From a virus (Duplodnaviria > Caudoviricetes): 64,000 bases of DNA. The notes below the pieces were generated by a model. The model was not told the origin of the DNA. It searched no databases and saw nothing but the letters and a program-made list of their open reading frames with translations. Positions within the stretch are counted from its first letter, which is position 1. Each line of letters begins with the position of its first letter. A program made the position numbers and the translations under genes. Location of the stretch: positions 3,097 through 67,096 of IMG/VR virus record IMGVR_UViG_3300029305_000181; one strand, written 5' to 3'. This document shows positions 30,913 through 55,282 of the stretch, piece after piece.

Positions 30913-30942
30913 TTCGCGAATTATACAAGTCCTCTTATGGAA
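30913..30942 (+). promoter_or_regulatory. Phage motif copy 1 (TTCGCG-N6-ACAA-N6-TWATG)
   Basis: TTCGCG AATTAT ACAA GTCCTC TTATG. Confidence 0.7.
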
Positions 30943-30973
30943 GGAAGACATATCAAATAAAGGAGTGTTTATC

Positions 30974-31141
30974 ATGTTTGAAATGAAATTTAAAATCGTG
31001 CAAATCCTTGAGAACGGTGGTGTCATTACACACTACCTCAAAGGTAAACCAAGAGATGTAAAATTAGACATTTTGGACTTCAAGAAAGCTTCTAAGAAAT
31101 TTGAGATGTTCGGTAAAGAAGGAATGATTGTGTGGATGTAA
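30974..31141 (+). CDS. Small hypothetical protein (55 aa) behind motif copy 1
   Basis: SD AAGGAG; MFEMKFKIVQ start. Confidence 0.55.
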   Translation: MFEMKFKIVQILENGGVITHYLKGKPRDVKLDILDFKKASKKFEMFGKEGMIVWM

Positions 31142-31240
31142 TGTCCGCACGGTCTCTTCTTTTTTTTCTCCACAAACATTGATATAACGCTTTCGGTATC
31201 ATATAGGTCCCTATGAATGAGGGTCTAAAAGACCCCTAAA

Positions 31241-32878
31241 TTATTTATATTTAAGCTTCATTTTTAACTTATAAGGAGGAGTATGCCATTGCATTCCTTT
31301 GGACGTATCCACTTTATATTCTTTGGCGTTGGCTTTTGTAATTCTAATTGTCTCGCCTCGTTCGTATTCAATCCTATCAATTATATTTTTGAGGAACTGA
31401 TTCTTCACTTTAGCGTCTACATTTGGGTCTTCTAATGCTGTGATCGCATCTTCGAACTTTTTCTTTTCTTCCCTATAGTCGATAGGCTTTGGCATCGAAC
31501 CTTTAGCTTTAGCTAAGGATTTCTTTATTTCTTCTTTTTCAAGTAATAATTTCTCGTTTAATCGTTTAAATACTTCTTGCGGCAAACGCATATTTGGATC
31601 GGGGTCATATTGGGCTTCCCATTGAAGGACTTCCTTTTCTTCAAGTTCTTTTAATTTTTTCTCAAGTCTCGCTACTAGATCTTTATGGAGTTTAAAAGAA
31701 TCGTCCTTGTTATTCTCAATACGTATTACAAAATCTTGTATACAGTCCTTTATAGCTGAGCATACGTCCGTAAATATTTCATCGAACACTACTGAACCAG
31801 TCTTGCAATGAATCTGATTATTGCATACTAGTTTGGGAGGTGCATATTCGATTCCGTTTTTCCTATAGGTATTGTAACCCATTTTAGCACCGCATTTACA
31901 ATACATTATACCGCTGAATGGATTCTTTAATGTTAGGTCACGCTTAGTGCGGTGACGTTTGCCTTTTATTTCTCTAGCTTTATAGAAAAGTTCTTCTGAT
32001 ATGATGCCGTCGTGCTTACCTTCAAACACAAGATACTCATCAACCTTTGCTTTTGGCCGTAGTTTCCTAATTTCCTGGTCTTCTATTATCTTGATTGTCT
32101 TTCTCCAGTTCCAACGTACGCAGCCTATATAATGGACATTTTCAAGCATCGAGAATATTTGATACGTACGCCAGTATTTACCACCGGTCTTAGTTTTGAC
32201 TCCTAACTCTTCTAACCGTCGGCATATCGCTGTTACTCCAATGTCCTCATTACAATACCAGTTAAACACCATTCTTACCACATCTGCCTGATCTTTTCTT
32301 TCGATTAATGTGTGATAAGATTTCTTTCCATCCGTTTTCTCTATACGATCAAAACCGTATGGCGCAACTGATCCGACATAATTGCCTTCTTTAACGCTTG
32401 CCAATTTTCCGCGAGCTTGGATCTTCTTGAAGTACTCTAGATATTCGTTGCCGCGTTTTAGCTCTCGTTCGAAAGCATCTCTATCATATTCATCTCGTAA
32501 ATCATATATTTTCATAGGCGTTATTACATACGTATTAGTGTAGCGAAGTATCCTAATTAATCTACCGGCATCTTCAAGATCGCCACGGCTTAAACGTTGA
32601 ACTTCTACTACCGCTACTGCTTTTATAGCAGGATTTTCTATAGTTTTTAATAAACGTAGTATCTCCGGACGACTATCTAATGACTCGGCACTTCCTACTT
32701 CCCTATATTTATTCTCTTCCGGTATAGGACCACCCAAATGTTTCTCTGCATATTCTTCTATTATTTTGTCATGCTTGTCTAACACCTCTTCGACTGATAA
32801 AAGTGGGTCGTCAGTCCTTGATTTCCTTCCGTAGTCTAGTACTTCATAGTTGTAAAATCTTGGATATTCTTTATACAT
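31241..32878 (-). CDS. Large serine recombinase (integrase)
   Basis: YGRKSR catalytic motif, EVQRLSRGDL, GSVAPYGF, recombinase domain, CKCG...C...C zinc ribbon, coiled coil. Confidence 0.92.
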   Translation of the reverse strand: MYKEYPRFYNYEVLDYGRKSRTDDPLLSVEEVLDKHDKIIEEYAEKHLGGPIPEENKYREVGSAESLDSRPEILRLLKTIENPAIKAVAVVEVQRLSRGDLEDAGRLIRILRYTNTYVITPMKIYDLRDEYDRDAFERELKRGNEYLEYFKKIQARGKLASVKEGNYVGSVAPYGFDRIEKTDGKKSYHTLIERKDQADVVRMVFNWYCNEDIGVTAICRRLEELGVKTKTGGKYWRTYQIFSMLENVHYIGCVRWNWRKTIKIIEDQEIRKLRPKAKVDEYLVFEGKHDGIISEELFYKAREIKGKRHRTKRDLTLKNPFSGIMYCKCGAKMGYNTYRKNGIEYAPPKLVCNNQIHCKTGSVVFDEIFTDVCSAIKDCIQDFVIRIENNKDDSFKLHKDLVARLEKKLKELEEKEVLQWEAQYDPDPNMRLPQEVFKRLNEKLLLEKEEIKKSLAKAKGSMPKPIDYREEKKKFEDAITALEDPNVDAKVKNQFLKNIIDRIEYERGETIRITKANAKEYKVDTSKGMQWHTPPYKLKMKLKYK

Positions 32879-32949
32879 TGGTTAATTTCCTCCTCCTTTT
32901 GTCTTACTTTACAGAAAAGTATCCGATATTGCAAATGATTTGATAATTT

Positions 32950-33009
32950 AATCTAGATTTAAAATTCCGTGATATACCGTACGCAGGTGACAATGAACGT
33001 TGTTATATT
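32950..33009 (+). promoter_or_regulatory. Second regulatory unit, copy 1: palindrome AATCTAGATT + TACGCAGGTGAC-N9-TGTTATATT
   Basis: Same architecture repeated at 34390-34440; extended -10-like TGnTATATT. Confidence 0.55.
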
Positions 33010-33054
33010 ACAATAGTAATCGGCACCTGCCCCGGTGCTTATAGAGAGGTGAGT

Positions 33055-33222
33055 ATGGAGAAAGTATATAACTGCAAGAATGGAACAATTTACGTAACAA
33101 TACCGGAGACTTGTGATCGAGAAAAACTTCGAAAGGTGACCGAGGATTTTCTCAAGAAAGTTATTTATGGGGGAATAGAAAATGGCAACAGTAATACGCG
33201 CAAAAATTTCAGAGAAAAATAA
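33055..33222 (+). CDS. Small hypothetical protein (55 aa)
   Basis: SD GAGGTG; overlaps the next gene; below the ORF-track length cutoff. Confidence 0.5.
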   Translation: MEKVYNCKNGTIYVTIPETCDREKLRKVTEDFLKKVIYGGIENGNSNTRKNFREK

Positions 33223-33601
33223 ATACTATATCGATAAACATCGTTACTACGAACTAAAACATTTTTGTTTGCAGTATGGCGAATGGAAAAAAGCATATGC
33301 GAATTGTAACGAGTCTATTATATTTGCATCTAAGTTTGAGAAAGAATCTACAAGTAACGTTCCATCCGATATTACTGCAAAGTATGCGATTAAAAGAGCG
33401 TATTACGCAGGTCGAATTAAGATAGTGGAAAAAGCCGCTATGGAAGCCGATGAGTTCCTCTACCCTTATATTTTAAAGGGTGTAACTGAGGGTTTATCGT
33501 TTACTTACTTAAAATCTAGATTAGAAATTCCATGTAGTAGGGATACTTACTACGATAGATATAGAAAATTCTTCTGGCTACTCAGCGAGGCCAGAGGTTA
33601 A
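33182..33601 (+). CDS. Putative transcriptional regulator (ArpU/RinA-like, C-terminal HTH)
   Basis: ILKGVTEGLSFTYLKSRLEIPCSRDTYYDRYRKFF resembles the sigma4-like HTH of late activators. Confidence 0.55.
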   Translation: MATVIRAKISEKNKYYIDKHRYYELKHFCLQYGEWKKAYANCNESIIFASKFEKESTSNVPSDITAKYAIKRAYYAGRIKIVEKAAMEADEFLYPYILKGVTEGLSFTYLKSRLEIPCSRDTYYDRYRKFFWLLSEARG

Positions 33602-33610
33602 ATTATATTT

Positions 33611-33640
33611 GAGAGGGTCTTTATGGCTCTCTTTTTTTTT
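33611..33640 (+). terminator. Intrinsic terminator
   Basis: GAGAG...CTCTC followed by T9. Confidence 0.7.
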
Positions 33641-33668
33641 CGCGTTAAATACAGTTCCTCTTATGAGA
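33639..33668 (+). promoter_or_regulatory. Phage motif copy 2
   Basis: TTCGCG TTAAAT ACAG TTCCTC TTATG. Confidence 0.7.
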
Positions 33669-33690
33669 AAGTACTTAAAGGAGGAAGGAC

Positions 33691-33912
33691 ATGATGGAAG
33701 ACATGAAACTACAACCTGGGCGCTTTATGAAGAGTATTATTACTAAAATCATCAAAACGATGGTACGTAAAAAACTTGGATATGAACTTGATATTCAGGT
33801 TAATGCTATCAACGTTGTGACAGAAGAAGGTAAAGTACGACTTCATCTTGATGCCGAGGTTGAAACTACCACAGAAGAATTTGTCAATATTATTAGTACT
33901 TACATGGATTGA
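33691..33912 (+). CDS. Hypothetical protein (73 aa)
   Basis: SD AGGAGG behind motif copy 2. Confidence 0.7.
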   Translation: MMEDMKLQPGRFMKSIITKIIKTMVRKKLGYELDIQVNAINVVTEEGKVRLHLDAEVETTTEEFVNIISTYMD

Positions 33913-33940
33913 GCCTAAAGAAACTTAGGCTCTTTCTTTT
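33911..33940 (+). terminator. Terminator, repeated family
   Basis: GAGCCTAA-AGAAAC-TTAGGCTC-TTTCTTTT. Confidence 0.8.
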
Positions 33941-33969
33941 TCGCGAAATTTACAAATAGTATTATGAGA
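33940..33969 (+). promoter_or_regulatory. Phage motif copy 3
   Basis: TTCGCG AAATTT ACAA ATAGTA TTATG. Confidence 0.75.
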
Positions 33970-34002
33970 ATAAAACTTATATTTTGAAAGGAGATTTTAG
34001 AA

Positions 34003-34128: not shown

Positions 34129-34141
34129 TTCTCAAAAGATT

Positions 34142-34172
34142 GAGTCTAAGAAAACTTAGACTCTTTCTTTTT
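34142..34172 (+). terminator. Terminator, repeated family
   Basis: GAGTCTAAG-AAAA-CTTAGACTC-TTTCTTTTT. Confidence 0.8.
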
Positions 34173-34200
34173 CGCGAAATTTACAAATAGTATTATGAGA
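34171..34200 (+). promoter_or_regulatory. Phage motif copy 4 (identical core to copy 3)
   Basis: TTCGCG AAATTT ACAA ATAGTA TTATG. Confidence 0.75.
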
Positions 34201-34230
34201 GAAATACATATTTTTAAGGAGGTTACTCTT

Positions 34231-34501: not shown

Positions 34502-34714
34502 ATGGAGTGGCTTATTTGGGTATGCGGGGTTTTCGTAGGGGTGTTTATTTCTATATTTTTGTCTAGAAAACTCAAACATGGGACCTTAAAAATCGATCAC
34601 TCAAATCCGGAAAAAGACGTATATCGTTTCGAGATTGATGATATCGATAAACTTAATAGTAAACGATATATTACGTTGAGAATCGACCACAACGCTGATC
34701 TTTCGCAAAATTAA
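34502..34714 (+). CDS. Small protein with N-terminal TM helix
   Basis: SD AAGGAG; MEWLIWVCGVFVGVFISIFL. Confidence 0.65.
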   Translation: MEWLIWVCGVFVGVFISIFLSRKLKHGTLKIDHSNPEKDVYRFEIDDIDKLNSKRYITLRIDHNADLSQN

Positions 34715-34731
34715 CAACCACTATTATGGAA
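34702..34731 (+). promoter_or_regulatory. Phage motif copy 5
   Basis: TTCGCA AAATTA ACAA CCACTA TTATG. Confidence 0.7.
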
Positions 34732-34759: not shown

Positions 34760-35113
34760 ATGGAAATCGAATCTGTGCTGTTGAAGAGAATAGGTGACAA
34801 TCTCGAAAAACTCAACGGACTAGAAATGGATAGCGAAGAATACAAGGCTACCGTAAACGAATTAAACTGTTTCATAGACCGGGCAATCGAAATGGAAAAG
34901 ATTCACGTCGAATCTGAGAAAAATCAGAATGAGATGGCTGAAGAAAAGAAAAATCGATTGATCCAGAATGTGTTTACAGGCATTAATGTCGTAGGCGGTG
35001 TGCTGATTGTGATCTGGGGCACCAATAAGACGTTGAAGTTTGAAGAAACTGACATCGTTGCTACAACAGCAGGTAAGAAATTCGTTAACCGAATTTTTTC
35101 GTTCTTGCGTTAA
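34760..35113 (+). CDS. Coiled-coil protein with a single TM segment
   Basis: SD GAAAGGAG; INVVGGVLIVIWG hydrophobic segment. Confidence 0.7.
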   Translation: MEIESVLLKRIGDNLEKLNGLEMDSEEYKATVNELNCFIDRAIEMEKIHVESEKNQNEMAEEKKNRLIQNVFTGINVVGGVLIVIWGTNKTLKFEETDIVATTAGKKFVNRIFSFLR

Positions 35114-35530: not shown

Positions 35531-35560
35531 TTCGCGAAAATTGCAATCGCCTTTATGAGA
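35531..35560 (+). promoter_or_regulatory. Phage motif copy 6
   Basis: TTCGCG AAAATT GCAA TCGCCT TTATG. Confidence 0.7.
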
Positions 35561-35716: not shown

Positions 35717-35723
35717 ATTCACA

Positions 35724-35756
35724 GAAAGGAACTCTTACAAAGGGTTCTTTTCTTTC
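35724..35756 (+). terminator. Intrinsic terminator
   Basis: GAAAGGAACTCT...AGGGTTCTTTTC followed by TTT. Confidence 0.7.
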
Positions 35757-35759: not shown

Positions 35760-35789
35760 TTCGCGAAATTTACAAGCGGTATTATGAGA
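35760..35789 (+). promoter_or_regulatory. Phage motif copy 7, directly upstream of a tRNA-like RNA
   Basis: TTCGCG AAATTT ACAA GCGGTA TTATG. Confidence 0.75.
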
Positions 35790-35792
35790 GAG

Positions 35793-35865
35793 GAACAGTT
35801 AGCTCAATTGGTAGAGCAAAAGGAATAAAACCTTTAGGTTATTGGTTCGAATCCAATACTGTTTC
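35793..35865 (+). ncRNA. tRNA-like RNA with a non-canonical anticodon loop (AATAAAA), no CCA
   Basis: Acceptor GAACAGT/ACTGTTT, D arm GCTC-AATTGGTA-GAGC, AC stem AAAGG/CCTTT, T arm ATTGG-TTCGAAT-CCAAT. Confidence 0.75.
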
Positions 35866-35893
35866 TTTTAGCTTTTAAAAAATCCGAAAGGCG

Positions 35894-36664
35894 ATGATAT
35901 GTATGAATGCAAAGTTGTTACACCGTTCACGATTATTTGTAAAGAAAAATGCATCTACGATTCTAACAGGAATGGGAGCAGCCGGAGTAGTAGCCACTAC
36001 CGTGATGGCAGTAAAGGCTACGCCTAAAGCAATGGTTTTACTAGAGGCTGCTAAAGAAGAGAAAGGAGAGGAGTTAACCAAGCTCGAAAAAGTGTATGTA
36101 GCAGCACCGGTTTATATTCCAGCAGTATTGATTGGCGCTGGTACAATCGCCTGTATTTTTGGTGCTAATGCTTTGAATAAGCGTCAGCAGGCAGCTTTAA
36201 TGAGCGCTTATGCGTTACTTGATAACTCTTATAAAGAGTATAAGAAAAAAGTAGAAGACTTGTATGGCAAAGAAGTAGACGGCCATATCAAAGCGGAGAT
36301 TGCCAAAGATAAGTATGAGTTGTCTGATATTTTTACAGACGAAGACGCTCAATTATACTATGACGAGTACTCAGGTAGATACTTCGAGTCTACTGCTGCT
36401 AAGGTAAAACAGGCCGAGTATAATGTTAATCGGCTCTTACGAATGAAAGGTTATGCATGCCTTAACGATTTTTATGAAGAATTAGGAATGGAACTGATTT
36501 ATAGCGGATATGATTTAGGCTGGACTCCGTCATTTTTAGAGGAACATGCGTGGCAGTCATGGCTCGATTTCAACCATCAAAAAGTGATTTTAGATGATGG
36601 TTTAGAGGTTTATATTGTATCTTTCTATACCGATCCTACGCCTAATTTCTTAGACTTTGCTTAA
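35894..36664 (+). CDS. DUF6353-like protein, paralogue 1
   Basis: ILTGMGAAGVVATTVMAVKATPKA...YACLNDFYEELG...GWT; start may be 35903. Confidence 0.75.
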   Translation: MICMNAKLLHRSRLFVKKNASTILTGMGAAGVVATTVMAVKATPKAMVLLEAAKEEKGEELTKLEKVYVAAPVYIPAVLIGAGTIACIFGANALNKRQQAALMSAYALLDNSYKEYKKKVEDLYGKEVDGHIKAEIAKDKYELSDIFTDEDAQLYYDEYSGRYFESTAAKVKQAEYNVNRLLRMKGYACLNDFYEELGMELIYSGYDLGWTPSFLEEHAWQSWLDFNHQKVILDDGLEVYIVSFYTDPTPNFLDFA

Positions 36665-36810: not shown

Positions 36811-36840
36811 TTCGCGATATCTACAACTAGTATTATGGAA
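36811..36840 (+). promoter_or_regulatory. Phage motif copy 8
   Basis: TTCGCG ATATCT ACAA CTAGTA TTATG. Confidence 0.7.
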
Positions 36841-37058: not shown

Positions 37059-37838
37059 ATGAGCAAACCCACAGTTACAAAGTTTTTCAAAACCGTGCAG
37101 ACAAAGGTTACCCAGTATAGTCCTGAGATTCTTACGGGCATTGGTATTGCTGGTATGGTCACTACTACCGTTCTGGCAGTCAAAGCCACGCCTAAGGCCA
37201 TGCGACTTATTGAGGATTATAAGGAGTGCGTGCTTCTTGAAAATGAGGAGATCACACCTATCGATGCCGTGAAGGTTGCTTGGAAGCCTTATATTCCGGC
37301 AGTAGTTACAGGCGTATTCTCTACTGCGTGCCTTATCGGCGCCAACTCCGTTAACGCACGTCGCAATGCGGCTCTTGCTACGGCTTATAAGCTTTCCGAG
37401 ACAGCTTTCTCTGATTACAAGGCGAAGGTAATCGAGACTATCGGCGAAAAGAAGGAACAGGTAGTCCGAGACGAGGTGGCGAAGGAGCGAGTAGAAAAGA
37501 ATCCGGTTAGTAAGTCCGAAGTGATTATTACCGAAAAAGGTAATACGCTTTGTCTAGATGTTATTTCCGGTCGATATTTCAAATCCGATATTGATAAGAT
37601 TAAGAAAGCCGAGAATAAGCTTAATTATCAGCTTTTGACATCTGACTATGTTTCTCTTAACGAATTCTATAACGAACTCGGTTTAGATAACACTCGAATC
37701 GGAGATGAACTTGGTTGGAATGTGGTCAATGGACTTATTGAAATTCACTTCAGTTCTACGATTGCCGAGGACGGAACGCCGTGTATCGTAATTGATTATA
37801 GCGTGGCGCCTAACCGAAACTACAATAGATATTCTTAA
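37059..37838 (+). CDS. DUF6353-like protein, paralogue 2
   Basis: PEILTGIGIAGMVTTTVLAVKATPKA...YVSLNEFYNELG...LGW. Confidence 0.75.
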   Translation: MSKPTVTKFFKTVQTKVTQYSPEILTGIGIAGMVTTTVLAVKATPKAMRLIEDYKECVLLENEEITPIDAVKVAWKPYIPAVVTGVFSTACLIGANSVNARRNAALATAYKLSETAFSDYKAKVIETIGEKKEQVVRDEVAKERVEKNPVSKSEVIITEKGNTLCLDVISGRYFKSDIDKIKKAENKLNYQLLTSDYVSLNEFYNELGLDNTRIGDELGWNVVNGLIEIHFSSTIAEDGTPCIVIDYSVAPNRNYNRYS

Positions 37839-37868
37839 TTCGCGAAATTTACAAGACATATTATGAGA
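37839..37868 (+). promoter_or_regulatory. Phage motif copy 9
   Basis: TTCGCG AAATTT ACAA GACATA TTATG. Confidence 0.75.
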
Positions 37869-37896: not shown

Positions 37897-38124
37897 ATGG
37901 CAAAGGAAAACGTTATCGAAATGGACATGACTGAGGAAGTCGAAAACAAAGGTTTTGTGGCTAAGGTTAAGCAGTTTGGTAAGCAGCATGGTAAGGAGAT
38001 TCTCGCTGGCGCGGGTATCGTTACTGCTGCGGCAATCGGCTATCTCGTAGGCAAGAACTCTGTTGGAGAGATTCTCGAGGTCGTGGATGACTACGTTCCT
38101 GTCGAGGAAATCCTGGAAGGGTAA
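37897..38124 (+). CDS. 75-aa protein with a hydrophobic segment
   Basis: SD GAAAGGAG behind motif copy 9. Confidence 0.7.
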   Translation: MAKENVIEMDMTEEVENKGFVAKVKQFGKQHGKEILAGAGIVTAAAIGYLVGKNSVGEILEVVDDYVPVEEILEG

Positions 38125-38620: not shown

Positions 38621-39220
38621 ATGAGCGTTTATGAGCCTAACTCTCACCGTTCCAAGGAAGAAAAGGCTGAAACGAGAGAAAAAAGAGTAGAAAAGGTTAT
38701 CAAGGGTACGGCCAAAACTCGTAAGAAGAGCGAGATTTCTAAGATCGGCGAAGTATTTATTTCTGAGGATGTTAGTAAGGTTAAATCCTATGTTCTCATG
38801 GATGTGCTTGTGCCGGCTATTAAGAAGGCCATTTCCGATATTGTTACGAACGGTATTGACATGATTCTGTATGGTGAATCTGGTCATACCAAGAAGCGTG
38901 GATCTTCTAACTATGTCTCTTATCGAGATTATAGTAGACGAGATGATCGTCGTGATCGTGATGACGAGCCTAGACGAAATAGCTTCAATTGCGAGGATAT
39001 TGTATTTGAAAGTAAGGGTGAAGCACTGGCAGTTATTGACCAGATGAATGACCTGGTTGATAACTACGGTGAAGTTAGCGTTGCTGATCTGTACGATATG
39101 GTCGACCTTACCGCGCCTTACACCAGTAATAAGTATGGCTGGACTAGTGTCCGCTATGCGGAACCTGTAAGAGTTCGAGATGGTTATATTATTAAGCTTC
39201 CTCGAGCTCAAGTGCTTTAA
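38621..39220 (+). CDS. Conserved phage protein with a C-terminal region resembling the DUF6353-like terminal domain
   Basis: EVSVADLYDMV...YGWT versus LNEVYDML...GW in the paralogues. Confidence 0.65.
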   Translation: MSVYEPNSHRSKEEKAETREKRVEKVIKGTAKTRKKSEISKIGEVFISEDVSKVKSYVLMDVLVPAIKKAISDIVTNGIDMILYGESGHTKKRGSSNYVSYRDYSRRDDRRDRDDEPRRNSFNCEDIVFESKGEALAVIDQMNDLVDNYGEVSVADLYDMVDLTAPYTSNKYGWTSVRYAEPVRVRDGYIIKLPRAQVL

Positions 39221-39234: not shown

Positions 39235-39546
39235 ATGATTGTAGCGCATACGGATATGAATCGTGTTGATAAATGGGATATGTCTATCGCAGATTATCCA
39301 GACAATAAACCCGATATGGTAAACCACCCCGCACATTATATTTCCAAGAAGGGCATCGAGGTTATCGATGTCATTGAAGCATTCACTGAGGACCTTAAGG
39401 GTATCGAAGCTACCGATACCGGTAATGTCATCAAGTATATTTGCCGTTGGCCTCATAAGAACGGCGTAGAAGACCTTAAGAAGGCTCGTTTCTATATCGA
39501 GCATCTCATTAATCATATTGAAAAGGAGACTAATAATCATGAATAA
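39235..39546 (+). CDS. DUF3310 family protein
   Basis: VNHPAHY...IEVIDVI...GNVIKYICRWPHKNGVEDLKKARFY. Confidence 0.85.
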   Translation: MIVAHTDMNRVDKWDMSIADYPDNKPDMVNHPAHYISKKGIEVIDVIEAFTEDLKGIEATDTGNVIKYICRWPHKNGVEDLKKARFYIEHLINHIEKETNNHE

Positions 39547-40471
39547 ACTTGAGATTGTAAACAAGGCTACTAGAACCTTCCATCGTGTCGGTTTCAAGCT
39601 TAAGAAGCATAGCCCTGAGATTCTGTCAGTAGTTGGTGCTGTCGGCGCCGTCACTGGTGCTGTTATGGCTTGTAAGGCCACTACTAAGGTTGGCGCTATT
39701 CTTGAGGATAGCAAGGAACAGATTGATATTATCCATCAGGGTATGGAAGACGGTCACGTTCGTGACGTGGATTATACTGAGGAAGACGGCAAGAAGGACC
39801 TTGCTATTGTCTATGCTCAGACCGGTCTTAAGGTTGCTAAACTGTATGCTCCTGCTGTAATTGTCGGCGCTGCCGGTATCGCTTGCATGCTTGGCTCTAC
39901 TAATATTCTGCGTAAGCGCAATGTTGCTATCGCAGCTGCTTATACGACTATCGATAAGAGCTTCAAGGAGTATCGTGGTCGTGTTATCGAGCGTTTCGGC
40001 GAAGAACTTGACCGTGAGCTTAAGTACAACATCAAGGCTATGAAGATCGAAGAGAAGGTCGTTGATGAGAACGGTAAGGAAAAGAAGGTAAAGAAGACTG
40101 TACAGGCTATTGATCCTACTAAGTATAGTGCTTATGCTCGTTTCTTTGATGACGGCTGCCTTGGTTGGGATAAGGACGCTGAACTGAATCTCTTCACTCT
40201 GCATCAGGTTCAGGAACATGCTAATGATCTGCTTAAGGCTCGTGGTCATCTGTTCCTTAATGAAGTGTACGATATGCTCGGTTTCAAGCGTACGAAGGCC
40301 GGTAATGTTGTTGGTTGGATTTACGACGAAGAGCATCCGATTGGCGATAACTACGTTGATTTCGGTATGTACAATCTTTATAACGAGAAGGCTCGTGACT
40401 TTGTGAACGGCTATGAGCGAGTTATTCTTCTTGACTTCAATGTGGACGGAGAGATTCTACATCTGATTTGA
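39539..40471 (+). CDS. DUF6353-like protein, paralogue 3
   Basis: KKHSPEILSVVGAVG...ACKATTK...LFLNEVYDMLG...VGW. Confidence 0.75.
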   Translation: MNKLEIVNKATRTFHRVGFKLKKHSPEILSVVGAVGAVTGAVMACKATTKVGAILEDSKEQIDIIHQGMEDGHVRDVDYTEEDGKKDLAIVYAQTGLKVAKLYAPAVIVGAAGIACMLGSTNILRKRNVAIAAAYTTIDKSFKEYRGRVIERFGEELDRELKYNIKAMKIEEKVVDENGKEKKVKKTVQAIDPTKYSAYARFFDDGCLGWDKDAELNLFTLHQVQEHANDLLKARGHLFLNEVYDMLGFKRTKAGNVVGWIYDEEHPIGDNYVDFGMYNLYNEKARDFVNGYERVILLDFNVDGEILHLI

Positions 40472-42283: not shown

Positions 42284-45200
42284 GTGATTGATTTTCTTAT
42301 GATTGCAACGCGTAGCACTAAGCGAGGCGTTGTTGAAATCTATCCAAAATTTAAGATTATGAAAAGCAACGACCTCATGATTCGAGGCGGTGACTTTTAT
42401 GCTATCTGGCTTGAAGATCGTGGATTCTGGTCCACGGAAGAGCAAGATGCATTACAATTAATCGATAAAGAATTGGATAGATATGCAAAAGAAAATCGTC
42501 ATAAATACGAGGACAACGTGAAAGTCTTGTATATGTGGGACAGTGAAAACGGCATGATTGACCGTTGGCACAAGTATTGCCAGAAGCATATGCGAGACGA
42601 TTATCACATGTTGGACGAAAATTTGATATTCTCCAATACTGAAGTAACTAAGAAGGATTATGCCAGTAAAAGGCTGAATTATCCTCTCGAAGCTGGTGAT
42701 ATTACAGCATACGATAAGCTGATGTCTACTTTATATTCTCCTGAGGAGAGGCATAAGCTTGAGTGGGCTATCGGTTCTATCGTGTCCGGAGATTCTAAGA
42801 AGATTCAGAAATTCTTAGTCTTGTATGGCGCAGCTGGTACTGGTAAATCTACTGTACTTAATATTATTCAGCAACTATTCGAGGGATATTATTCAGTTTT
42901 TGACGCTAAAGCTCTTGGTTCTGCGAATAATTCGTTTGCGTTGGAAGCATTCAAAACCAATCCGCTTGTAGCAATTCAGCATGACGGTGACTTGTCTAAA
43001 ATCGAAGATAATACTCGACTTAATAGTTTGGTATCCCATGAGTTGATGACCGTAAACGAAAAGTTTAAATCGACATATTCTAGTCGTTTCAAGGCGTTCC
43101 TCTTCATGGGTACCAACCGACCTGTAAAGATTACAGACGGACGTTCGGGTCTTATTCGACGACTTATTGACGTGTCACCGTCAGGCAATAAAGTCAGTCA
43201 AAAGGAATACAAAACTCTTGTCAAGCAAGTTGACTTTGAGCTTGGCGCAATTGCACAACATTGTCTGGATGTATATTTGGCTAAGCCTAATGCTTATGAC
43301 GATTATATTCCTACGACAATGATGGGCGCATCTAACGATTTCTATAACTTTGTTATTGACTCGTACCATATATTTAAAAAAGAAGATGGTGTAAGCTTGA
43401 AGGCTGCTTGGGAGATGTATAAGACCTATTGCGATGAAGCGAAGGTTCCTTATCCGTTCTCTCAGCGTACCTTCAAGGAAGAACTTAAGACCTATTTTTG
43501 GGACTTTAACGATCGTTTCAGTCTCGAGGATGGGTCTAGAGTTCGTAGTTTCTATAGCGGTTTCCGTACTGATCGATTCGAAAATGAATCTGATAAAAAG
43601 AGCAAAAAGAAGGACACTCACAAGCCTAAGCTTATCGAGTTCGAATCTACTGATTCTATATTTGATAAGGAGAGAGCTGATTGTTCTGCTCAGTACGCTA
43701 CTGCTAATGAAACCCCGTCTAAAAAGTGGGAGAAAGTCAAGACTAAGCTGTCCTCGTTGGATACGACCAAGCTGCATTATGTCAAGGTTCCAGAAAATCA
43801 CATTGTGATTGACTTTGATATTCCGGATGGCAGCGGTAATAAATGCTTTAAACGTAACTTGGAAGAGGCTAGTAAATGGCCGCCTACGTACGCCGAACTT
43901 AGTAAGAGCGGACAAGGTATACATCTGCATTATATTTATACTGGAGACGTATCGAAACTGAGTCGAATTTATGATGATTACATAGAAGTAAAGGTATTTA
44001 CCGGAGGTAGTTCGCTTCGGAGAAAATTCACCAAATGCAACGACCTTCCCATAGCGTCTATTAGCTCCGGATTACCCTTAAAGGAGGATTCGAAGGTGAT
44101 AGACTTTGATGGTCTCAAAAACGAGAAGGCATTGCGGACTACTATCAAGCGCAATCTCAATAAAGAGTACCATGCAGCAACCAAGCCTAGCGTAGACTTC
44201 ATTTACAAGATTCTTGAGGATGCCTATAACACGGGTGTCAGCTATGACCTTACTGATATGAAGAATGCCGTATATGCATTCGCCGCGGGCAGTACGAATC
44301 AGGCAGACTATTGTCTCAAGCTTGTAAAGAAGATGCACTTTAAATCTGAGGAGGCTTCTCCTGGGATTAAAGAAAGTGATGCTAGTTTGATATTTTACGA
44401 TATTGAGGTGTTTCCGAACCTCTTCCTCGTTAACTGGAAGATTCAAGGTAAGGGTAAGCCTGTAGTTCGTATGATCAATCCCACTCCTGCTGAGATCGAA
44501 GAACTTCTCAAGTTCAGACTGGTTGGCTATAATTGCCGTCGTTATGATAACCATGTTCTTTACGGACGTTTGCTTGGTTATAGTAATGAGCAGCTTTACG
44601 AACTGTCTCAGAAGATTATCAGCGGTAGCAGGAATGCATTCTTTGGCGAAGCGTATAACCTCTCGTATACGGACGTTTACGACTTTGCTGCTAAGAAGCA
44701 ATCTCTTAAGAAGTGGGAAATCGAGCTTGGTATTCACCACCAGGAACTTGGTTTACCGTGGGATCAGCCGGTGCCTGAGGAAATGTGGCCTAAGGTCGCT
44801 GAGTACTGTGACAATGACGTATACGCTACTGAAGCGGTGTTCGACCATCTCAAGGGCGACTGGACTGCTAGACAGATTCTGGCTGAGCTTGCTGGTTTGT
44901 CTGTAAACGACACGACCAACTCGCTTACTACTAGAATTATATTTGGCAAGGAAAAGAAACCTAATCTGGTTTATACCGATCTGTCCGAGACATTCCCTGG
45001 TTACGAGTTCAAGGACGGTAAGAATATTTACCGTGGCACCGATCTCGGCTTCGGCGGTTATGTCTATGCGGAACCCGGCATGTATACGGACGTAGCACTG
45101 CTTGACGTAGCTTCTCTGCATCCGCATTCGATTATCGCTATGAATTGCTTTGGCGACTATACGCAGCACTTCAAGGATATTCTTGATGCTCGTATGTACA

Positions 45201-46165
45201 TAAAGCATGGTGACTTCGATTCTGCTCGTAAGATGCTTAGCGGACGGCTTGCTCCTTATCTGGATGATGAATCCAAGGCTAAGGACCTTGCTCAGGCGCT
45301 TAAGATTGCTATCAATAGCGTGTATGGTCTAACTGCTGCCAACTTCGATAATCCGTTCCGTGATATTCGTAATAAGAACAATATCGTAGCTCTGCGTGGT
45401 GCTCTGTTTATGCGGACTCTTCAGGATGAGGTCCAGCAGCGTGGATTTACTGTCTGTCATATTAAGACGGACTCTATCAAGATCCCGAATGCTACCCCTG
45501 AGATTATCCAGTTCTGTATGGACTTCGCTAAGGGCTATGGATACACGTTCGAACACGAGGCTACGTACGACCGCATGTGCCTTGTGAACGATGCTGTTTA
45601 TATTGCCAAGTATAAGGACGGTAAGGAAGCTGGTCAGTGGACTGCTACTGGTACTCAGTTCCAGGTTCCGTATGTATTCAAGAAGCTCTTTAGTCGTGAG
45701 GCTATCGAGTTCGACGATATGTGCGAAACCAAGTCTGTGACTTCGGCTCTGTATCTGGACATGAATGAAAGTCTGGCTACGGACGAGCATAACTACCACT
45801 TTATCGGTAAGGTTAGCCGGTTCTGTCCGATCAAACCTGGACACGGTGGCGGTGAGCTTCTGCGCGAAGGAAAAGACAAGGAAGGCAATGTCAAGTATTC
45901 CTCTGCTACTGGAGCGAAGGGTTATCGTTGGCTTGAATCTGAGATGGTCAAGTCTCTCGGTAAGGAGAAGGACATTGACCGATCTTATTACGATCGACTT
46001 GTGGACGAGGCGGTTGAGACTATTTCCCAGTATGGTGACTTCGAGTGGTTTATCTCGGATGATCCTAATGTCGCTCCGTGGTTTAAAGCGGAAGATCCGA
46101 ATGATCTGCCGTGGGATACGGACGAAGTAAAAAATCCAATTCTGTTGGATGACGAACCTGTTTAA
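42284..46165 (+). CDS. Fused SF3 (D5-like) helicase / primase-like / 3'-5' exonuclease / family-B DNA polymerase (1293 aa)
   Basis: Walker A LYGAAGTGKS; HIVIDFD...SKSGQGIHLHY (AEP-like); FYDIEVF, GYNCRRYD, YCDND (exo I-III); DVASLHP, KIAINSVYG, IKTDS (PolB motifs). Confidence 0.85.
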   Translation: MIDFLMIATRSTKRGVVEIYPKFKIMKSNDLMIRGGDFYAIWLEDRGFWSTEEQDALQLIDKELDRYAKENRHKYEDNVKVLYMWDSENGMIDRWHKYCQKHMRDDYHMLDENLIFSNTEVTKKDYASKRLNYPLEAGDITAYDKLMSTLYSPEERHKLEWAIGSIVSGDSKKIQKFLVLYGAAGTGKSTVLNIIQQLFEGYYSVFDAKALGSANNSFALEAFKTNPLVAIQHDGDLSKIEDNTRLNSLVSHELMTVNEKFKSTYSSRFKAFLFMGTNRPVKITDGRSGLIRRLIDVSPSGNKVSQKEYKTLVKQVDFELGAIAQHCLDVYLAKPNAYDDYIPTTMMGASNDFYNFVIDSYHIFKKEDGVSLKAAWEMYKTYCDEAKVPYPFSQRTFKEELKTYFWDFNDRFSLEDGSRVRSFYSGFRTDRFENESDKKSKKKDTHKPKLIEFESTDSIFDKERADCSAQYATANETPSKKWEKVKTKLSSLDTTKLHYVKVPENHIVIDFDIPDGSGNKCFKRNLEEASKWPPTYAELSKSGQGIHLHYIYTGDVSKLSRIYDDYIEVKVFTGGSSLRRKFTKCNDLPIASISSGLPLKEDSKVIDFDGLKNEKALRTTIKRNLNKEYHAATKPSVDFIYKILEDAYNTGVSYDLTDMKNAVYAFAAGSTNQADYCLKLVKKMHFKSEEASPGIKESDASLIFYDIEVFPNLFLVNWKIQGKGKPVVRMINPTPAEIEELLKFRLVGYNCRRYDNHVLYGRLLGYSNEQLYELSQKIISGSRNAFFGEAYNLSYTDVYDFAAKKQSLKKWEIELGIHHQELGLPWDQPVPEEMWPKVAEYCDNDVYATEAVFDHLKGDWTARQILAELAGLSVNDTTNSLTTRIIFGKEKKPNLVYTDLSETFPGYEFKDGKNIYRGTDLGFGGYVYAEPGMYTDVALLDVASLHPHSIIAMNCFGDYTQHFKDILDARMYIKHGDFDSARKMLSGRLAPYLDDESKAKDLAQALKIAINSVYGLTAANFDNPFRDIRNKNNIVALRGALFMRTLQDEVQQRGFTVCHIKTDSIKIPNATPEIIQFCMDFAKGYGYTFEHEATYDRMCLVNDAVYIAKYKDGKEAGQWTATGTQFQVPYVFKKLFSREAIEFDDMCETKSVTSALYLDMNESLATDEHNYHFIGKVSRFCPIKPGHGGGELLREGKDKEGNVKYSSATGAKGYRWLESEMVKSLGKEKDIDRSYYDRLVDEAVETISQYGDFEWFISDDPNVAPWFKAEDPNDLPWDTDEVKNPILLDDEPV

Positions 46166-46689: not shown

Positions 46690-46719
46690 TTCGCGAAAAT
46701 TACAAAGTGTTTAATGGAG
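46690..46719 (+). promoter_or_regulatory. Phage motif copy 10, ahead of the tRNA cluster
   Basis: TTCGCG AAAATT ACAA AGTGTT TAATG. Confidence 0.7.
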
Positions 46720-46755
46720 GGAGACCTGGGATTTACCTGGGTCTCTCTTTTGTTT
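46719..46755 (+). terminator. Terminator-like hairpin immediately after motif copy 10
   Basis: GAGACC...GGTCTC-TCTTTTGTTT. Confidence 0.6.
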
Positions 46756-46757: not shown

Positions 46758-46843
46758 GCCGGAGTGGTGGAATGGCAGACACAGCAGACTTAAAATCTGC
46801 GGCCTTGATAGACGTACGGGTTCGAGTCCCGTCTCCGGTACCA
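46758..46843 (+). tRNA. tRNA-Leu(TAA)
   Basis: GCCGGAG/CTCCGGT acceptor, GCAGA-CTTAAAA-TCTGC anticodon arm, long variable arm, TTCGAGT, encoded CCA. Confidence 0.95.
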
Positions 46844-52327: not shown

Positions 52328-52339
52328 AAGGAGAAAAAA

Positions 52340-52537
52340 ATGCTTAAAGGTAAACTTCATGTTGGTCTGATTAATGGAACTGAAAAAGTAGTGGTTATCC
52401 ATACTTACGATTTAAATAAGCCGATCGATTTCATCAATATGATCATTTCAAAAGATTATTTTACTATCACGGATAATGGAAAAATCTTTGCTTTTCGCAA
52501 CTCAAACACTACGCATATTTATTTCGAGGAGGATTAA
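52340..52537 (+). CDS. Hypothetical protein (65 aa)
   Basis: SD GAAAGGAG. Confidence 0.6.
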   Translation: MLKGKLHVGLINGTEKVVVIHTYDLNKPIDFINMIISKDYFTITDNGKIFAFRNSNTTHIYFEED

Positions 52538-52539
52538 AA

Positions 52540-52704
52540 ATGCCTTGTCAAAACTGTAAAAATGCCCTGTTTAACGAACTGTGGGGCGAGTATAAATGTA
52601 AACTCAAGCAGATTGTTATTAATATACTTGAAGACCTTTGCCCTGATTTTGTAGAGGGCACACCCGAAGTATCCAAGGAAGATAGATATCCTGAAGAAGA
52701 TTAA
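52540..52704 (+). CDS. 54-aa Cys-rich protein
   Basis: SD GAGGAGG; CQNC...C...C; below the track cutoff. Confidence 0.5.
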   Translation: MPCQNCKNALFNELWGEYKCKLKQIVINILEDLCPDFVEGTPEVSKEDRYPEED

Positions 52705-52718
52705 GGAGGATAGTAAGG

Positions 52719-54992
52719 TTGACTGAATTTGAGTGGCTGGGCGAAGACAACCAGATAGGTATTGATATCTGGCGAAAAAAGTACCAGCGTAATGACGAAA
52801 CATTCGAACAGTGGCTTGATCGCGTGTCCGGCGGCAACCACGAAGTTCGAGAGCTGATCAAGGAAAAGAAGTTCCTGTTCGGCGGACGTATTCTCTCTAA
52901 TCGAGGGATGGATAAGTACGGCAAGAAGATCACATATTCTAACTGCTATGTTATCACGCCTCCCGAAGATAATATCGAGAGCATTTACGAGTGTGCTACT
53001 AAGCTGGCACGTACATATTCTTATGGCGGTGGTTGCGGTATTGATATTAGTAAGCTGTCTCCCAGAGGAGCTAAGATCAATAACTCTGCCGAGGCCACTA
53101 CTGGTTCGGTCTCCTTTATGGACCTGTATAATCTGACTACGGATCTTATCGGGCAGAACGGACGACGTGGAGCTATGATGATCAGTCTGACTTGCGATCA
53201 TCCGGACCTGGAGGAATTCATTGATATTAAGTCTGATCTGAGCAAGATCACCAAGGCCAATATCTCAATCAAGATTACGGATGAGTTTATGAAGGCGGTC
53301 AAGGAGGAAAGATATTTCGATCTGACCTTCACTCGAGATGAGACCGGCGAGACTATTACTAAGCGAGTGTTCGCTCCTGATATTTGGCGTAAACTCTGCC
53401 GAATGAATTGGGATTATGCTGAGCCTGGCATTCTGTTCTGGGATCGTATTCGTGATTGGAATCTTCTCAGTGAAGATGAGGAATTCGAGTATGCTGGAAC
53501 AAATCCCTGCGCAGAAGAGCCCCTGCCTGCTGGCGGTAGTTGTCTTCTCGGTAGTCTGAATCTCGCGGAGTTTGTCACACCTTTTGGCGAATTTGACTAT
53601 GAGGAGTTTAAACACGCTGTAATGGTCGCTGTGACGGCTCTGAATGAAGTTTTGGACGAAGGTATGCCTCTGCACCCTCTTCAGGAGCAACGCGATTCTG
53701 TGCGTGACTGGCGGCAAATCGGACTTGGTATCTTCGGTCTTGCTGACATGCTGATCAAGATGGGTATTAAGTATGGCTCTGATAGATCCTTGATTATTTG
53801 CGACAAGATCGGGTTCAATATGGCTAACCAGGCTATCCGCACTTCTGCAATGCTTGCTAGTGCTGGCGGTCCGTATCCGAAATATAAGCATTTGCCAGTG
53901 GTTAATTCCGGCTTCTATTGCCATAACACTGACTATACTACTAGCGAAGTTGTCAATCAGTACGGTCTTCGCAACTCCCAGCTTATGACTATCGCTCCTA
54001 CCGGTTCTCTGTCTACTATGCTCGGTGTGTCTGGTGGTATCGAGCCTATCTTCGCAAATTACTACGAACGTAAGACTGAATCCCTACATGGACATGACGA
54101 GTACTATAAGATCTACACTCCCATCGTAAAGAAGTATATGGAAGAGTATGATATCGATAATGTAGAGGATCTGCCTGATTTCTTCGTTACCGCGAGAGAC
54201 ATTAATTATAAAGAACGTATCGAAATGCAGGCCACTTGGCAAAATCATATCGACGCTTCTATCAGCTCTACTATTAATCTTCCTAATGATATTTCTATCG
54301 AACAGGTAGAAGATCTGTATAGATACGCTTGGGGGCGATGCCTCAAAGGCGTCACCATCTTCCGTGAAGGCTGTCAACGGACGGCTGTGCTGTCAACGGA
54401 CACTGAACAGAAGAATGATATTCCCGAGTATTCGGGTCCTGTCTGTCTCAATCGAGGAATCATCATTAAGGCTAACGACACTTGTGTAGGGAAGAAACGG
54501 ACGCTGCATACTGGCTGCGGTACTCTGCATTGTGAGGCGTTCTTTGAGCCTACTACTGGCGAACTGCGAGAAGTATATTTGAATAAGGGCTCCACCGGTG
54601 GTTGTAATAACTTTATGGTGGGTCTTAGTCGAATGATCTCTCTGGCAGCTCGTGGCGGTGTGAGTATCGATGATATTCTGGACCAGCTTGGTTCCTCTGG
54701 TACTTGTCCGTCCTATGCGGTACGTACTGGTATTAGGCATGACACTTCTAAGGGCTCTAGCTGTCCTGTGGCGGTTGGGAACGCTCTTAAGGAGATGTAT
54801 GAGGAGATGCAGGTGGAAGTTGGTAAGCGCGAGTGGCTGTCTGAGACGGTTCTATCTAATCTGTTTGAGCCTGACACCGTACCGCCTATGGTAGTCGCAA
54901 CTAATCCCGTATGCCCTGAGTGTGGCGGCAACCTTGTATTCGAAGGTGGCTGCAACACCTGTAAGGATTGTGGTTGGAGTAAGTGTGATTAA
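52719..54992 (+). CDS. nrdJ: Class II (adenosylcobalamin-dependent) ribonucleotide reductase
   Basis: FLFGGRIL, YSNCYV, TNPCAEEPL, QIGLGIFG, TIAPTGSLS, SSTINL; C-terminal CPECG...CKDCGWSKC. Confidence 0.92.
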   Translation: MTEFEWLGEDNQIGIDIWRKKYQRNDETFEQWLDRVSGGNHEVRELIKEKKFLFGGRILSNRGMDKYGKKITYSNCYVITPPEDNIESIYECATKLARTYSYGGGCGIDISKLSPRGAKINNSAEATTGSVSFMDLYNLTTDLIGQNGRRGAMMISLTCDHPDLEEFIDIKSDLSKITKANISIKITDEFMKAVKEERYFDLTFTRDETGETITKRVFAPDIWRKLCRMNWDYAEPGILFWDRIRDWNLLSEDEEFEYAGTNPCAEEPLPAGGSCLLGSLNLAEFVTPFGEFDYEEFKHAVMVAVTALNEVLDEGMPLHPLQEQRDSVRDWRQIGLGIFGLADMLIKMGIKYGSDRSLIICDKIGFNMANQAIRTSAMLASAGGPYPKYKHLPVVNSGFYCHNTDYTTSEVVNQYGLRNSQLMTIAPTGSLSTMLGVSGGIEPIFANYYERKTESLHGHDEYYKIYTPIVKKYMEEYDIDNVEDLPDFFVTARDINYKERIEMQATWQNHIDASISSTINLPNDISIEQVEDLYRYAWGRCLKGVTIFREGCQRTAVLSTDTEQKNDIPEYSGPVCLNRGIIIKANDTCVGKKRTLHTGCGTLHCEAFFEPTTGELREVYLNKGSTGGCNNFMVGLSRMISLAARGGVSIDDILDQLGSSGTCPSYAVRTGIRHDTSKGSSCPVAVGNALKEMYEEMQVEVGKREWLSETVLSNLFEPDTVPPMVVATNPVCPECGGNLVFEGGCNTCKDCGWSKCD

Positions 54993-54994
54993 GG

Positions 54995-55024
54995 TTCGCG
55001 AATCTTACAACTCCTATAATGAAA
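54995..55024 (+). promoter_or_regulatory. Phage motif copy 11
   Basis: TTCGCG AATCTT ACAA CTCCTA TAATG. Confidence 0.7.
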
Positions 55025-55037
55025 GGAGTGGATTAAC

Positions 55038-55229
55038 ATGCTTAAAAACATTTATAAGTATGTGTTGAAAAAGCTACATGATTTTCACCTTGATATGTCT
55101 GATTATTACTACGGAAAAATGGATGAATATGGTTCCGAGAATAATGACTATTATGGTGTGAAGGTAGCGAAGCACACACGCAAATGTTTGAAGATCATGG
55201 AGAAACTCGTAGCAATGGAAGAGTTCTAG
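55038..55229 (+). CDS. 63-aa protein behind motif copy 11
   Basis: SD GAAAGGAG; followed by a repeated-family terminator. Confidence 0.65.
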   Translation: MLKNIYKYVLKKLHDFHLDMSDYYYGKMDEYGSENNDYYGVKVAKHTRKCLKIMEKLVAMEEF

Positions 55230-55250
55230 TTTTAGGACTCTTCTCTTTTT
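55218..55250 (+). terminator. Terminator, repeated family
   Basis: GAAGAGTTCTA-GTTT-TAGGACTCTTC-TCTTTTT. Confidence 0.75.
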
Positions 55251-55252
55251 CT

Positions 55253-55282
55253 TTCGCGAAAAATGCAAACCACTTTATGAGA
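55253..55282 (+). promoter_or_regulatory. Phage motif copy 12
   Basis: TTCGCG AAAAAT GCAA ACCACT TTATG. Confidence 0.7.

Follow-up and report, generated by a model that had tools for sequence, protein, structure and literature searches.

A three-box motif as the candidate promoter of a single-chain RNA polymerase in a temperate phage of gut Clostridia

The RNA polymerases of phages T7, N4 and P23-45, which read private promoters, serve both as tools and as models for minimal transcription. The T7 promoters are contiguous elements of about 25 base pairs (bp) with fixed spacing, an AT-rich stretch before the start and a purine at +1 that opens a purine-rich initial sequence, and they occur in many copies on one strand; in the middle promoters of T4, a case of 'sigma appropriation', a MotA box replaces the -35 element at a shorter distance from a TATAAT-like element. 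Among the single-chain polymerases of the two-barrel type, two are encoded by Thermus phage P23-45 (gp96, present in the virion, and the non-virion gp64), and each of them was assigned its own promoter motif by mapping of transcription start sites and by chromatin immunoprecipitation sequencing (PMC10770324). YonO of the Bacillus prophage SPbeta is a single-chain two-barrel DNA-dependent RNA polymerase that transcribes the late operon from one start site, its promoter sequence being still undetermined in the 2017 paper (PMC5467207). A further family, the 'HTH-RdRP-HTH putative RNA polymerase' (PHROG 4291), was predicted from sequence only, with a promoter never mentioned, as the signature gene of an actinophage supercluster, Lactococcus phage 1706 and FP_oengus (Koert et al., bioRxiv 10.1101/842583); the literature connects this family to YonO by distant motifs only. 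Here we describe a motif of three boxes, TTCGCG-N6-ACAA-N6-TWATG, which recurs in a stretch of 64,000 nucleotides (nt) of the Caudoviricetes record IMGVR_UViG_3300029305_000181 (the whole stretch is called the window below). The motif is very probably a promoter, and we estimate at about 0.6 the probability that it is read directly by the member of the PHROG 4291 family encoded by the same phage.

This polymerase shows 37-45% identity to the proteins of that family (the PHROG 4291 or phage 1706 ORF75 type) in the actinophages, 1706 and FP_oengus, shares with them the DxDGD loop and a helix-turn-helix (HTH) module at both ends, and is encoded within the gene order exonuclease, polymerase, small gene, terminase region that is also found in the actinophages, 1706 and FP_oengus. 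In comparison with the family as presented by Koert et al., the locus offers a candidate promoter of 27-30 bp and a temperate phage of gut Clostridia with a serine integrase. An earlier sequence-only reading of the window could match the system to no characterised one; as to the polymerase this is to be qualified, the family having already been predicted (10.1101/842583), while as to the promoter it holds, none having been described for the family. Our literature search, covering the motif strings, phage 1706, ReqiPepy6, Arthrobacter cluster AM and the YonO promoters, found no description of such a promoter either.

The polymerases of P23-45 and the one considered here are both (in our case by prediction) single-chain two-barrel phage enzymes accompanied by conserved motifs, and gp64/gp62 are among the structural matches of our model. 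On the other hand, no sequence similarity is detectable between them, HTH modules are not mentioned for gp96 and gp64 (PMC10770324), P23-45's motifs, AT-rich and GC-rich, are set beside ours by description only, and the function of those enzymes was established experimentally, whereas that of the present one is a prediction. YonO, like this polymerase, comes from a temperate siphophage; the motif described here, however, marks non-structural genes and not a single late promoter. As for the promoters of the T7/T3/SP6 type, the likeness is a working resemblance and not family membership: the folds are unrelated (right-hand, Pol I-like there and, as predicted, two-barrel here), and recognition in our case would presumably be accomplished by the HTH modules.

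The motif, its copies and its geometry

The exact pattern was found eight times in the window, on the + strand only, and not once in 100 dinucleotide-preserving shuffles of the window. With one mismatch allowed, four further sites were retrieved (33639, 34702, 35531 and 55253), again on the + strand only, so that all twelve coordinates given in the sequence-only reading proved correct, with the same spacing throughout. The IMG/VR virus record (G000; positions of the record are marked so below) is 67,096 bp long and has a 127-bp terminal repeat, and the window covers its positions 3097-67096. The 3.1 kb of the record beyond the window hold two more full copies, at G000:768 and G000:1420, and two weaker ones, at G000:423 and G000:1264; the whole 67-kb genome thus carries 14 full copies, every one of them on the + strand. 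A position-weight scan of the genome detected the motif neither on the - strand nor within the late block, the 28.6 kb that hold the virion and lysis genes (window 2288-30866).

Every copy has 14 nt between TTCGCG and TATWAT, in agreement with the gap reported earlier for TATTAT. The position after TWAT is G in every copy and is followed by a run of purines (GAGA, GGAA), and the motif includes an 8-bp palindrome, TTCGCGAA; both details had escaped remark in the earlier reading. Six of the window copies lie directly 3' of a hairpin with a T-tract, most of the others no more than 10 nt after a stop codon, and the copy at 36811 in a non-coding gap; downstream of every copy there is either a Shine-Dalgarno sequence (SD) with a start codon or an RNA gene. 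Terminators are enriched in the region (15 found against 5.3 expected). The placement at gene boundaries, after a terminator or stop codon and before an SD or RNA gene, is confirmed. The copies in the window are listed below with the open reading frames (ORFs; lengths in amino acids, aa) or RNA genes that they precede.

30913..30939, + strand: exact copy after the terminator that closes the late/lysis block; heads a 55-aa ORF (30974-31141)
33639..33665, + strand: copy with one mismatch (ACAG) after the terminator 33611-33633; heads a 73-aa ORF (33691-33912)
33940..33966, + strand: exact copy after the terminator 33911-33932; heads a 41-aa ORF
34171..34197, + strand: exact copy, with the same 27 bases as the copy at 33940, after the terminator 34142-34163; heads a 28-aa ORF
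34702..34728, + strand: copy with one mismatch (TTCGCA); heads a 117-aa ORF (34760-35113)
35531..35557, + strand: copy with one mismatch (GCAA), one base after the stop of a 119-aa gene; heads a 43-aa ORF
35760..35786, + strand: exact copy after the terminator 35723-35753; a tRNA-like gene (about 35792-35866) starts some 6 nt after the motif
36811..36837, + strand: exact copy with the SD GAAGGAG directly after TTATG
37839..37865, + strand: exact copy, one base after the stop of a DUF6353 gene; heads a 75-aa ORF (37897-38124)
46690..46716, + strand: exact copy after the gene of a single-stranded DNA annealing protein; tRNA-Leu (46758-46843) and more tRNAs lie downstream
54995..55021, + strand: exact copy, 3 nt after the ribonucleotide reductase stop, with the SD AAAGGAG directly after TAATG
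55253..55279, + strand: copy with one mismatch (GCAA) after a terminator; heads a DUF6353-like 144-aa gene (55310-55744)

Counted from TATTAT, the tRNA-like gene at the 35760 copy starts 7-8 nt downstream, in agreement with the earlier claim. Between the 46690 copy and tRNA-Leu (window about 46717-46752) there is a GC-rich hairpin with a T-tract, which is terminator-like, lies a few bases into the predicted transcript and may separate read-through by the host polymerase from that by the phage polymerase.

Judged by its bases and spacing, the motif fits no sigmaA promoter. Its gap of 14 nt falls outside the 16-18 nt between the -35 and -10 elements, no TTGACA-like hexamer was found 16-18 nt upstream of TATWAT in the motif copies, and the TG of an extended -10 element was not found in them either. 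In the TATWAT register, A at -11 is present in only 7 of the 14 copies of this genome, no register of these 14 copies gives A-11 and T-7 together, and in FP_oengus the third box is CTTTAT in 9 of 12 copies, so that A-11 is missing there. Sigma70-like consensus sites occur in the region at the level of chance (23 against 22.9 expected). Two ways of fitting the motif to known spacings were also discarded: TTTACA as a -35 element would leave only 5 nt to TATTAT, with nothing conserved 17 nt downstream of TTTACA, and the 19-20 nt spacer of the MerR type fits only some of the single-copy sites in host genomes (see below), those with a chance TTGTAA upstream.

The position of the SD sequences bears on the start of transcription. 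The distance from motif position 27 to the SD core is 2 nt at 36811 and 54995; in FP_oengus it is 0-3 nt at five sites, and in phage 1706 it is 0-3 nt at one site and 6 nt at six others. Since the SD abuts the box at the first eight of these sites, in three phages, a start 5-9 nt downstream would remove it, and the likely start is therefore the purine (G or A) right after the AT-rich box, at position 27 or 28. The start 5-9 nt after the TWAT box, expected in the sequence-only reading, is in this respect probably wrong.

The polymerase and its co-occurrence with the motif

The polymerase gene and the small gene coupled to it are located as follows.

G000:2382-5384 (L009:2382-5384), + strand: gene of the 1000-aa RNA polymerase; its last 761 codons (the 3' three quarters) are window 3..2288
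2288..2548, + strand: gene of an 86-aa acidic protein (phrog_4303), coupled to the polymerase gene and conserved in all relatives compared; a possible accessory factor

The match of the polymerase to phrog_4291, a profile that bears the label 'RNA-dependent RNA polymerase', has E = 0 and 1204 bits. The family is large: the tblastn search retrieved 251 phage records, of Actinobacteria and Bacillota, and in 249 of these the alignment spans 80% or more of the query; many gut prophages are to be added. The N-terminal HTH (aa 105-137) gives matches to Sigma70_r4_2 and HTH_23, that is, it resembles region 4 of sigma70, and the C-terminal one (aa 958-998) to HTH_3 and HTH_38. The GADFDGD loop, which holds the DxDGD catalytic motif, is invariant in 14 sequences from six lineages, and the recognition helices of both HTHs are nearly unchanged across all polymerase lineages compared. 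The near-constancy of these helices, together with that of the promoter boxes, fits direct reading of the boxes by the polymerase, short of proof.

A sequence search of PDB with the polymerase gave no match. The AF2 model is of moderate quality (pLDDT 70, pTM 0.48), and its best Foldseek matches are QDE-1 (E 2.8e-4, probability 1.0), RDR2 and the Thermus phage proteins gp64/gp62 (8f72_A, 8f5m_A), with the largest subunits of Pol II and Pol IV next in rank. This partial fold match suggests a single-chain two-barrel (double-psi beta-barrel) enzyme, a single chain of what would be the same ancient fold as that of the cellular polymerases. Residues 24-48 (L009:2451-2525), HYG(M/V)xRRSGRYPWGSGxxPYQ, are nearly invariant in 10 homologs from gut phages and are modelled at very low confidence (pLDDT below 40). 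The idea that the N-terminus carries a DUF7211 capsid-cargo leader, which would have hinted at packaging into the virion, was supported neither by BLASTP (E = 7.8) nor by hhalign (probability 1.3%), and the DUF7211 profile did not match the polymerase.

The polymerase is encoded in an operon of the order VRR-Nuc endonuclease, exonuclease, polymerase, headed by the motif copy G000:1420; a copy heads the polymerase operon also in FP_oengus (at 27680) and in MT835495. Between this operon and the late genes (window about 2670-2708) we noticed a hairpin, GGGGAGGGGG/CCCCCTCC, the loop of which, TCGCAAAAAATACA, reproduces boxes 1 and 2 of the motif at the right spacing and has no third box. Because this hairpin is not conserved in relatives, it was dropped as a candidate late promoter and is not proposed as such.

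Co-occurrence of the motif with the polymerase gene in related genomes had been set as a check by the sequence-only reading, and it was found. IMG/VR was scanned for the motif alone, and 13 contigs were chosen only for having at least two copies; 11 of them encode the polymerase (43-68% identity), and for the two that do not, completeness is 61% and 88%. With up to one mismatch counted, the copies number 3-12 per contig and lie without exception on the strand of the polymerase, and the reversed control pattern gave no match on any of the 13. In bacterial genomes with motif-bearing prophage loci, the polymerase was present in all nine tested. The following arrays were found in named relatives.

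FP_oengus (Faecalibacterium, GC 49%): 12 copies of GACGCGAAAaa-.CAg-N6-TTTATG
1706 (Lactococcus, GC 34%): 10 copies of TTCRCA-N6-ACAT-N4-TATAGTAGA
HotFries (Streptomyces, GC 61%): 6 copies of TCGCA-N7-.C..-N4-TATAGTGAGACCCCTAC
Duffington (Gordonia, GC 51%): 5 copies of TCGCA-N6-ACAC-N4-TATAATGAGACCCC
Circum (Arthrobacter, GC 45%): 8 copies of tCGCG-N6-ACA.-N4-TATAAT

The same three boxes, with the same spacing and in same-strand arrays, are thus present in every polymerase-bearing relative examined, in two phyla, including the lytic members of the group (1706 and the actinophages). In the high-GC phages HotFries and Duffington, 10-11 bases 3' of the box are conserved too, as expected if a fixed initial sequence is transcribed.

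When the ORFs of the whole phage were compared with those of FP_oengus, 1706, HotFries and MT835495, the non-structural proteins common to all five genomes (our own included) were the polymerase, the two upstream nucleases and the acidic 86-aa protein; DUF6353 paralogs, the primase/polymerase and the helicase are common to our phage, FP_oengus, 1706 and HotFries. MT835495.1 (L010 and L011) is a gut phage mosaic which shares the nuclease-polymerase-86-aa module and the virion genes (41-80% identity) and has none of the early, replication and nucleotide-metabolism genes of this phage. Its only two motif copies are just upstream of the nuclease-polymerase module, which indicates that the motif travels with the polymerase module and not with the early genes. 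In one bacterial assembly, G054 (uncultured Clostridia MAG24; loci L166, L182, L183 and L221), four polymerase genes and four genes of a 139-aa protein (see below) were found, so that it contains either several related prophages or several strains binned together.

The reader of the motif and rival explanations

If the polymerase reads the motif, its two built-in HTH modules would recognize the upstream boxes, (T)TCGCG at positions 1-6 and ACAA at positions 13-16, on double-stranded DNA, the AT-rich TATWAT box (positions 21-26) would be the melting region, and RNA would start at the invariant purine, position 27 or 28, with the purine-rich initial sequence GAGA or GGAA. Such a layout would be closer to a T7-type promoter than to a -35/-10 promoter. 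In the early, replication, nucleotide-metabolism and tRNA regions, every short transcription unit would be served by a copy of its own, usually right after the terminator of the previous unit. The copy at the head of the endonuclease-exonuclease-polymerase operon would provide positive feedback, and transcription would enter the 28-kb virion block, where the motif is absent, by read-through from the polymerase operon. The first polymerase molecules might be made from a host promoter or by read-through, or might be brought along in the virion.

With a candidate promoter of 27-30 bp, the polymerase family becomes testable with one protein and one oligonucleotide. The questions opened in this way are whether the enzyme starts autonomously, whether its sigma-like HTH modules replace a sigma factor, and where it starts. 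Should the enzyme work alone, Gram-positive and gut bacteria would gain an expression system that is both compact and orthogonal.

Several observations weigh against direct reading by the polymerase. The co-occurrence among related phages is partly due to shared ancestry and does not amount to independent replication; the structural model is of only moderate quality, and TM-scores of about 0.2 mean a partial structural match. The polymerase gene itself stands behind a motif copy, which leaves its first molecules unexplained. YonO transcribes late and not early genes (PMC5467207), and here it is the late block that has no motif copy. The third box is a perfect TATAAT in the actinophages and TATAGT in 1706, and region 2 of the host sigmaA may contribute in these phages. 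Finally, when 185,579 genomes of bacteria and archaea were scanned with a stringent version of the motif, in which 17 bases are fixed, at least 120 loci matched, mostly in gut Clostridia and other Bacillota (the chance estimate for uniform composition is about 17). Among the 120 loci listed, 21 have homology to this phage and 15 have 2-11 same-strand copies (14 of the latter being among the 21 homologous), as expected for prophages; at least 98, within L145-L264, are single copies with no phage homology nearby. In the 30 single-copy genomes tested, the polymerase was found neither by protein nor by profile search, the positive controls being detected. Should these single copies function in uninfected cells, the motif must have a reader in the host. 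The word 'private', which the sequence-only reading applied to the promoter, is weakened by these copies in polymerase-less bacterial genomes.

Another reader named in the sequence-only reading was host RNA polymerase aided by an 'ArpU-like' protein encoded at 33182.

33182..33601, + strand: gene of a 139-aa protein with phrog_11237 as its only match; first larger gene after the integrase, closed by a terminator

This protein has no Pfam match, ArpU included, even at E = 1. It is present in 7 of 19 motif-bearing phage records (18 of the 19 have arrays), and a query with it did not find it in the other 12, among them G001, G002, G009 and G013, which are 93-100% complete; it was not found in 1706, HotFries, Circum, Duffington and MT835495, so that among the named phages compared it was found only in FP_oengus, which also bears an integrase. 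As a reader of the motif it was rejected on this distribution. Its gene lies downstream of a sigmaA-type promoter candidate (32987-33014), and we rather regard the protein as a candidate for a role in lysogeny or for an immediate-early protein. Of the two options in the earlier reading, the one of a non-sigmaA promoter tied to the phage polymerase gains from the comparative arrays across two phyla, whereas the combination of host polymerase and the 33182 protein is not upheld.

An explanation that we regard as unlikely is that a phage factor binds the TTCGCGAA and ACAA boxes and redirects host RNA polymerase, which uses TATWAT as its -10 element, much as at the MotA/AsiA middle promoters of T4; transcription by the phage polymerase would then be confined to the late block, in the manner of YonO. 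Candidates for the factor would be the polymerase itself, with its HTHs, in the role of an activator, the 86-aa protein, or some protein that has escaped recognition. The TATAAT or TATAGT of the third box in the actinophages and 1706 would suit such a scheme, as would the TTCGCGAA palindrome, which would be centred near -28 if TATWAT is the -10 element, close to the position of the MotA box. The polymerase gene, besides, closes the non-structural arm and has the late genes directly after it, a position to be expected for a late-gene polymerase, and late genes are what YonO transcribes (PMC5467207). However, A-11 is missing in half of the copies of this phage, the box is CTTTAT in 9 of the 12 FP_oengus copies, and a start 5-9 nt downstream does not fit in where the SD abuts the box, whereas the T4 middle promoters need host sigma70, an intact -10 element including A-11 and a start about 7 nt downstream, which many copies here do not offer. 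The choice of a factor is also narrow: the polymerase is the only DNA-binding protein common to all motif-bearing phages, the 86-aa protein is acidic, and the 139-aa protein was not found in 12 of the 19 motif-bearing records. Nor was a second conserved motif found before the late block.

That host machinery alone, a sigma or transcription factor common to these bacteria, reads the motif and the phages borrow it, we consider very improbable. It would account for the single near-perfect copies, oriented towards the downstream gene, in about 100 gut Bacillota genomes, in 30 of which, when tested, neither the polymerase nor the 139-aa protein was found. Each of these 30 genomes, however, has about one perfect copy, and matches with one mismatch are at the level of the reversed control, so that no host regulon is visible; the downstream genes differ between genomes, and many of them have an ordinary promoter nearby, of the MerR type 40-60 nt downstream of the motif or with an extended -10 element upstream of it. 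Moreover, the motif is kept in phages of Actinobacteria, Bacilli and Clostridia, whose hosts differ in their alternative sigma factors, and no arrays without the polymerase were seen in the IMG/VR contigs and the tested prophage genomes, the two polymerase-less contigs being 61% and 88% complete. Hardly any credence can be given to the motif being no promoter at all and serving as a repressor 'stoperator', as a replication or recombination site for the conserved nucleases or as an RNA leader element. The TTCGCGAA palindrome does suggest a dimeric binder, and at some single-copy host sites an extended -10 element lies upstream, so that the motif would be transcribed there; but the AT-rich box with its purine run, the position between terminator and SD, the placement before tRNA genes and the presence of one copy per unit fit a promoter, and ordinary promoters are not enriched in the non-structural arm as substitutes. 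An operator of lysogeny it is not, because the lytic phages (1706 and the actinophages) carry the motif too.

Single copies in bacterial genomes and other features of the phage

The single-copy sites were picked as near-perfect matches, and conservation among them is not to be judged from this set. They are oriented towards the downstream gene, and the motif often stands beside the ordinary promoter of that gene, as a second one. The following classes of downstream genes recur.

MerR regulators: 18 loci among those listed, often with zinc-ribbon/DUF6591 proteins (13 loci)
PDC-S30, a PADLOC defence candidate: 12 loci among those listed (E 1e-92 to 1e-98)
A 404-417-aa protein without an assigned family: 9 loci among those listed; in L190 it adjoins GmrSD restriction genes, and in L165 DUF6414 comes after it
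Xre-type regulators: a recurrent class downstream of single copies

Identical flanks of single copies recur in different genera, which suggests mobile DNA. The single copies are either read by the host, or relics of phage cassettes, or attached to genes that are wired to the polymerase of an infecting phage. With regard to the last of these, we mention as a speculation, rather doubtful at present, that bacteria or mobile islands have wired genes of their own to the phage-polymerase promoter, either as an infection sensor for defence or in a parasitism of the satellite type; such genes would stay silent until a polymerase-bearing phage infects the cell and would then be switched on at once. Should the single bacterial copies be functional, hosts or satellites would be listening in on the private transcription signal of the phage.

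At some loci (L207:1500-1547, and also L147, L164, L170 and L235) two motifs stand back to back and share the TTCGCGAA palindrome (TTGTAAATTTCGCGAAATTTACAA); these would be divergent promoters served from one site. In polymerase-less genomes, the catalytic region of phrog_4291 was matched weakly, with about 21-23 bits, by ORFs of 1022-1063 aa, at G019:C58:3407-3727, G022:C89:80723-80944 and G036:C113:21410-21652; they may encode the host beta-prime subunit or a distant single-chain polymerase.

The phage itself is a siphophage with nearly all genes on the + strand, and it is temperate, as follows from its serine integrase. A search of the phage collection for near-identical DNA found no close relative. 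Two further features of the window are the following.

31241..32878, - strand: large serine recombinase (integrase), the only clear - strand gene
32987..33014, + strand: sigmaA-type promoter candidate GTGACA-16-TACAAT, a consensus match only, in the interval that separates the integrase gene from the first + strand genes

The latter is the only reasonable sigmaA-type candidate. The non-structural content comprises cassettes of small ORFs, the annealing protein, tRNAs, a helicase, ribonucleotide reductase and nucleotide-salvage genes and, across the ends of the record, the VRR-Nuc endonuclease, the exonuclease and the 1000-aa polymerase. A 1293-aa ORF (42284-46165) was considered as an RNA polymerase and rejected, since it is a DNA primase/polymerase (DUF5906, phrog_4210). 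The DUF6353 paralogs are located at 35894-36664, 37059-37838, 39518-40471 and 55310-55744 and, weakly, at 38621-39220; the family occurs also in FP_oengus, 1706 and HotFries and not in MT835495. Near the terminase gene, three otherwise unrelated proteins have in common an N-terminal leader, Pfam DUF7211 (E about 1e-9), at 5792-5860, 8092-8160 and 9375-9440; tblastn with these three proteins hit a single spot in FP_oengus and a single spot in HotFries, with short alignments of 64-87% identity, where the matching segment is probably the DUF7211 leader as well.

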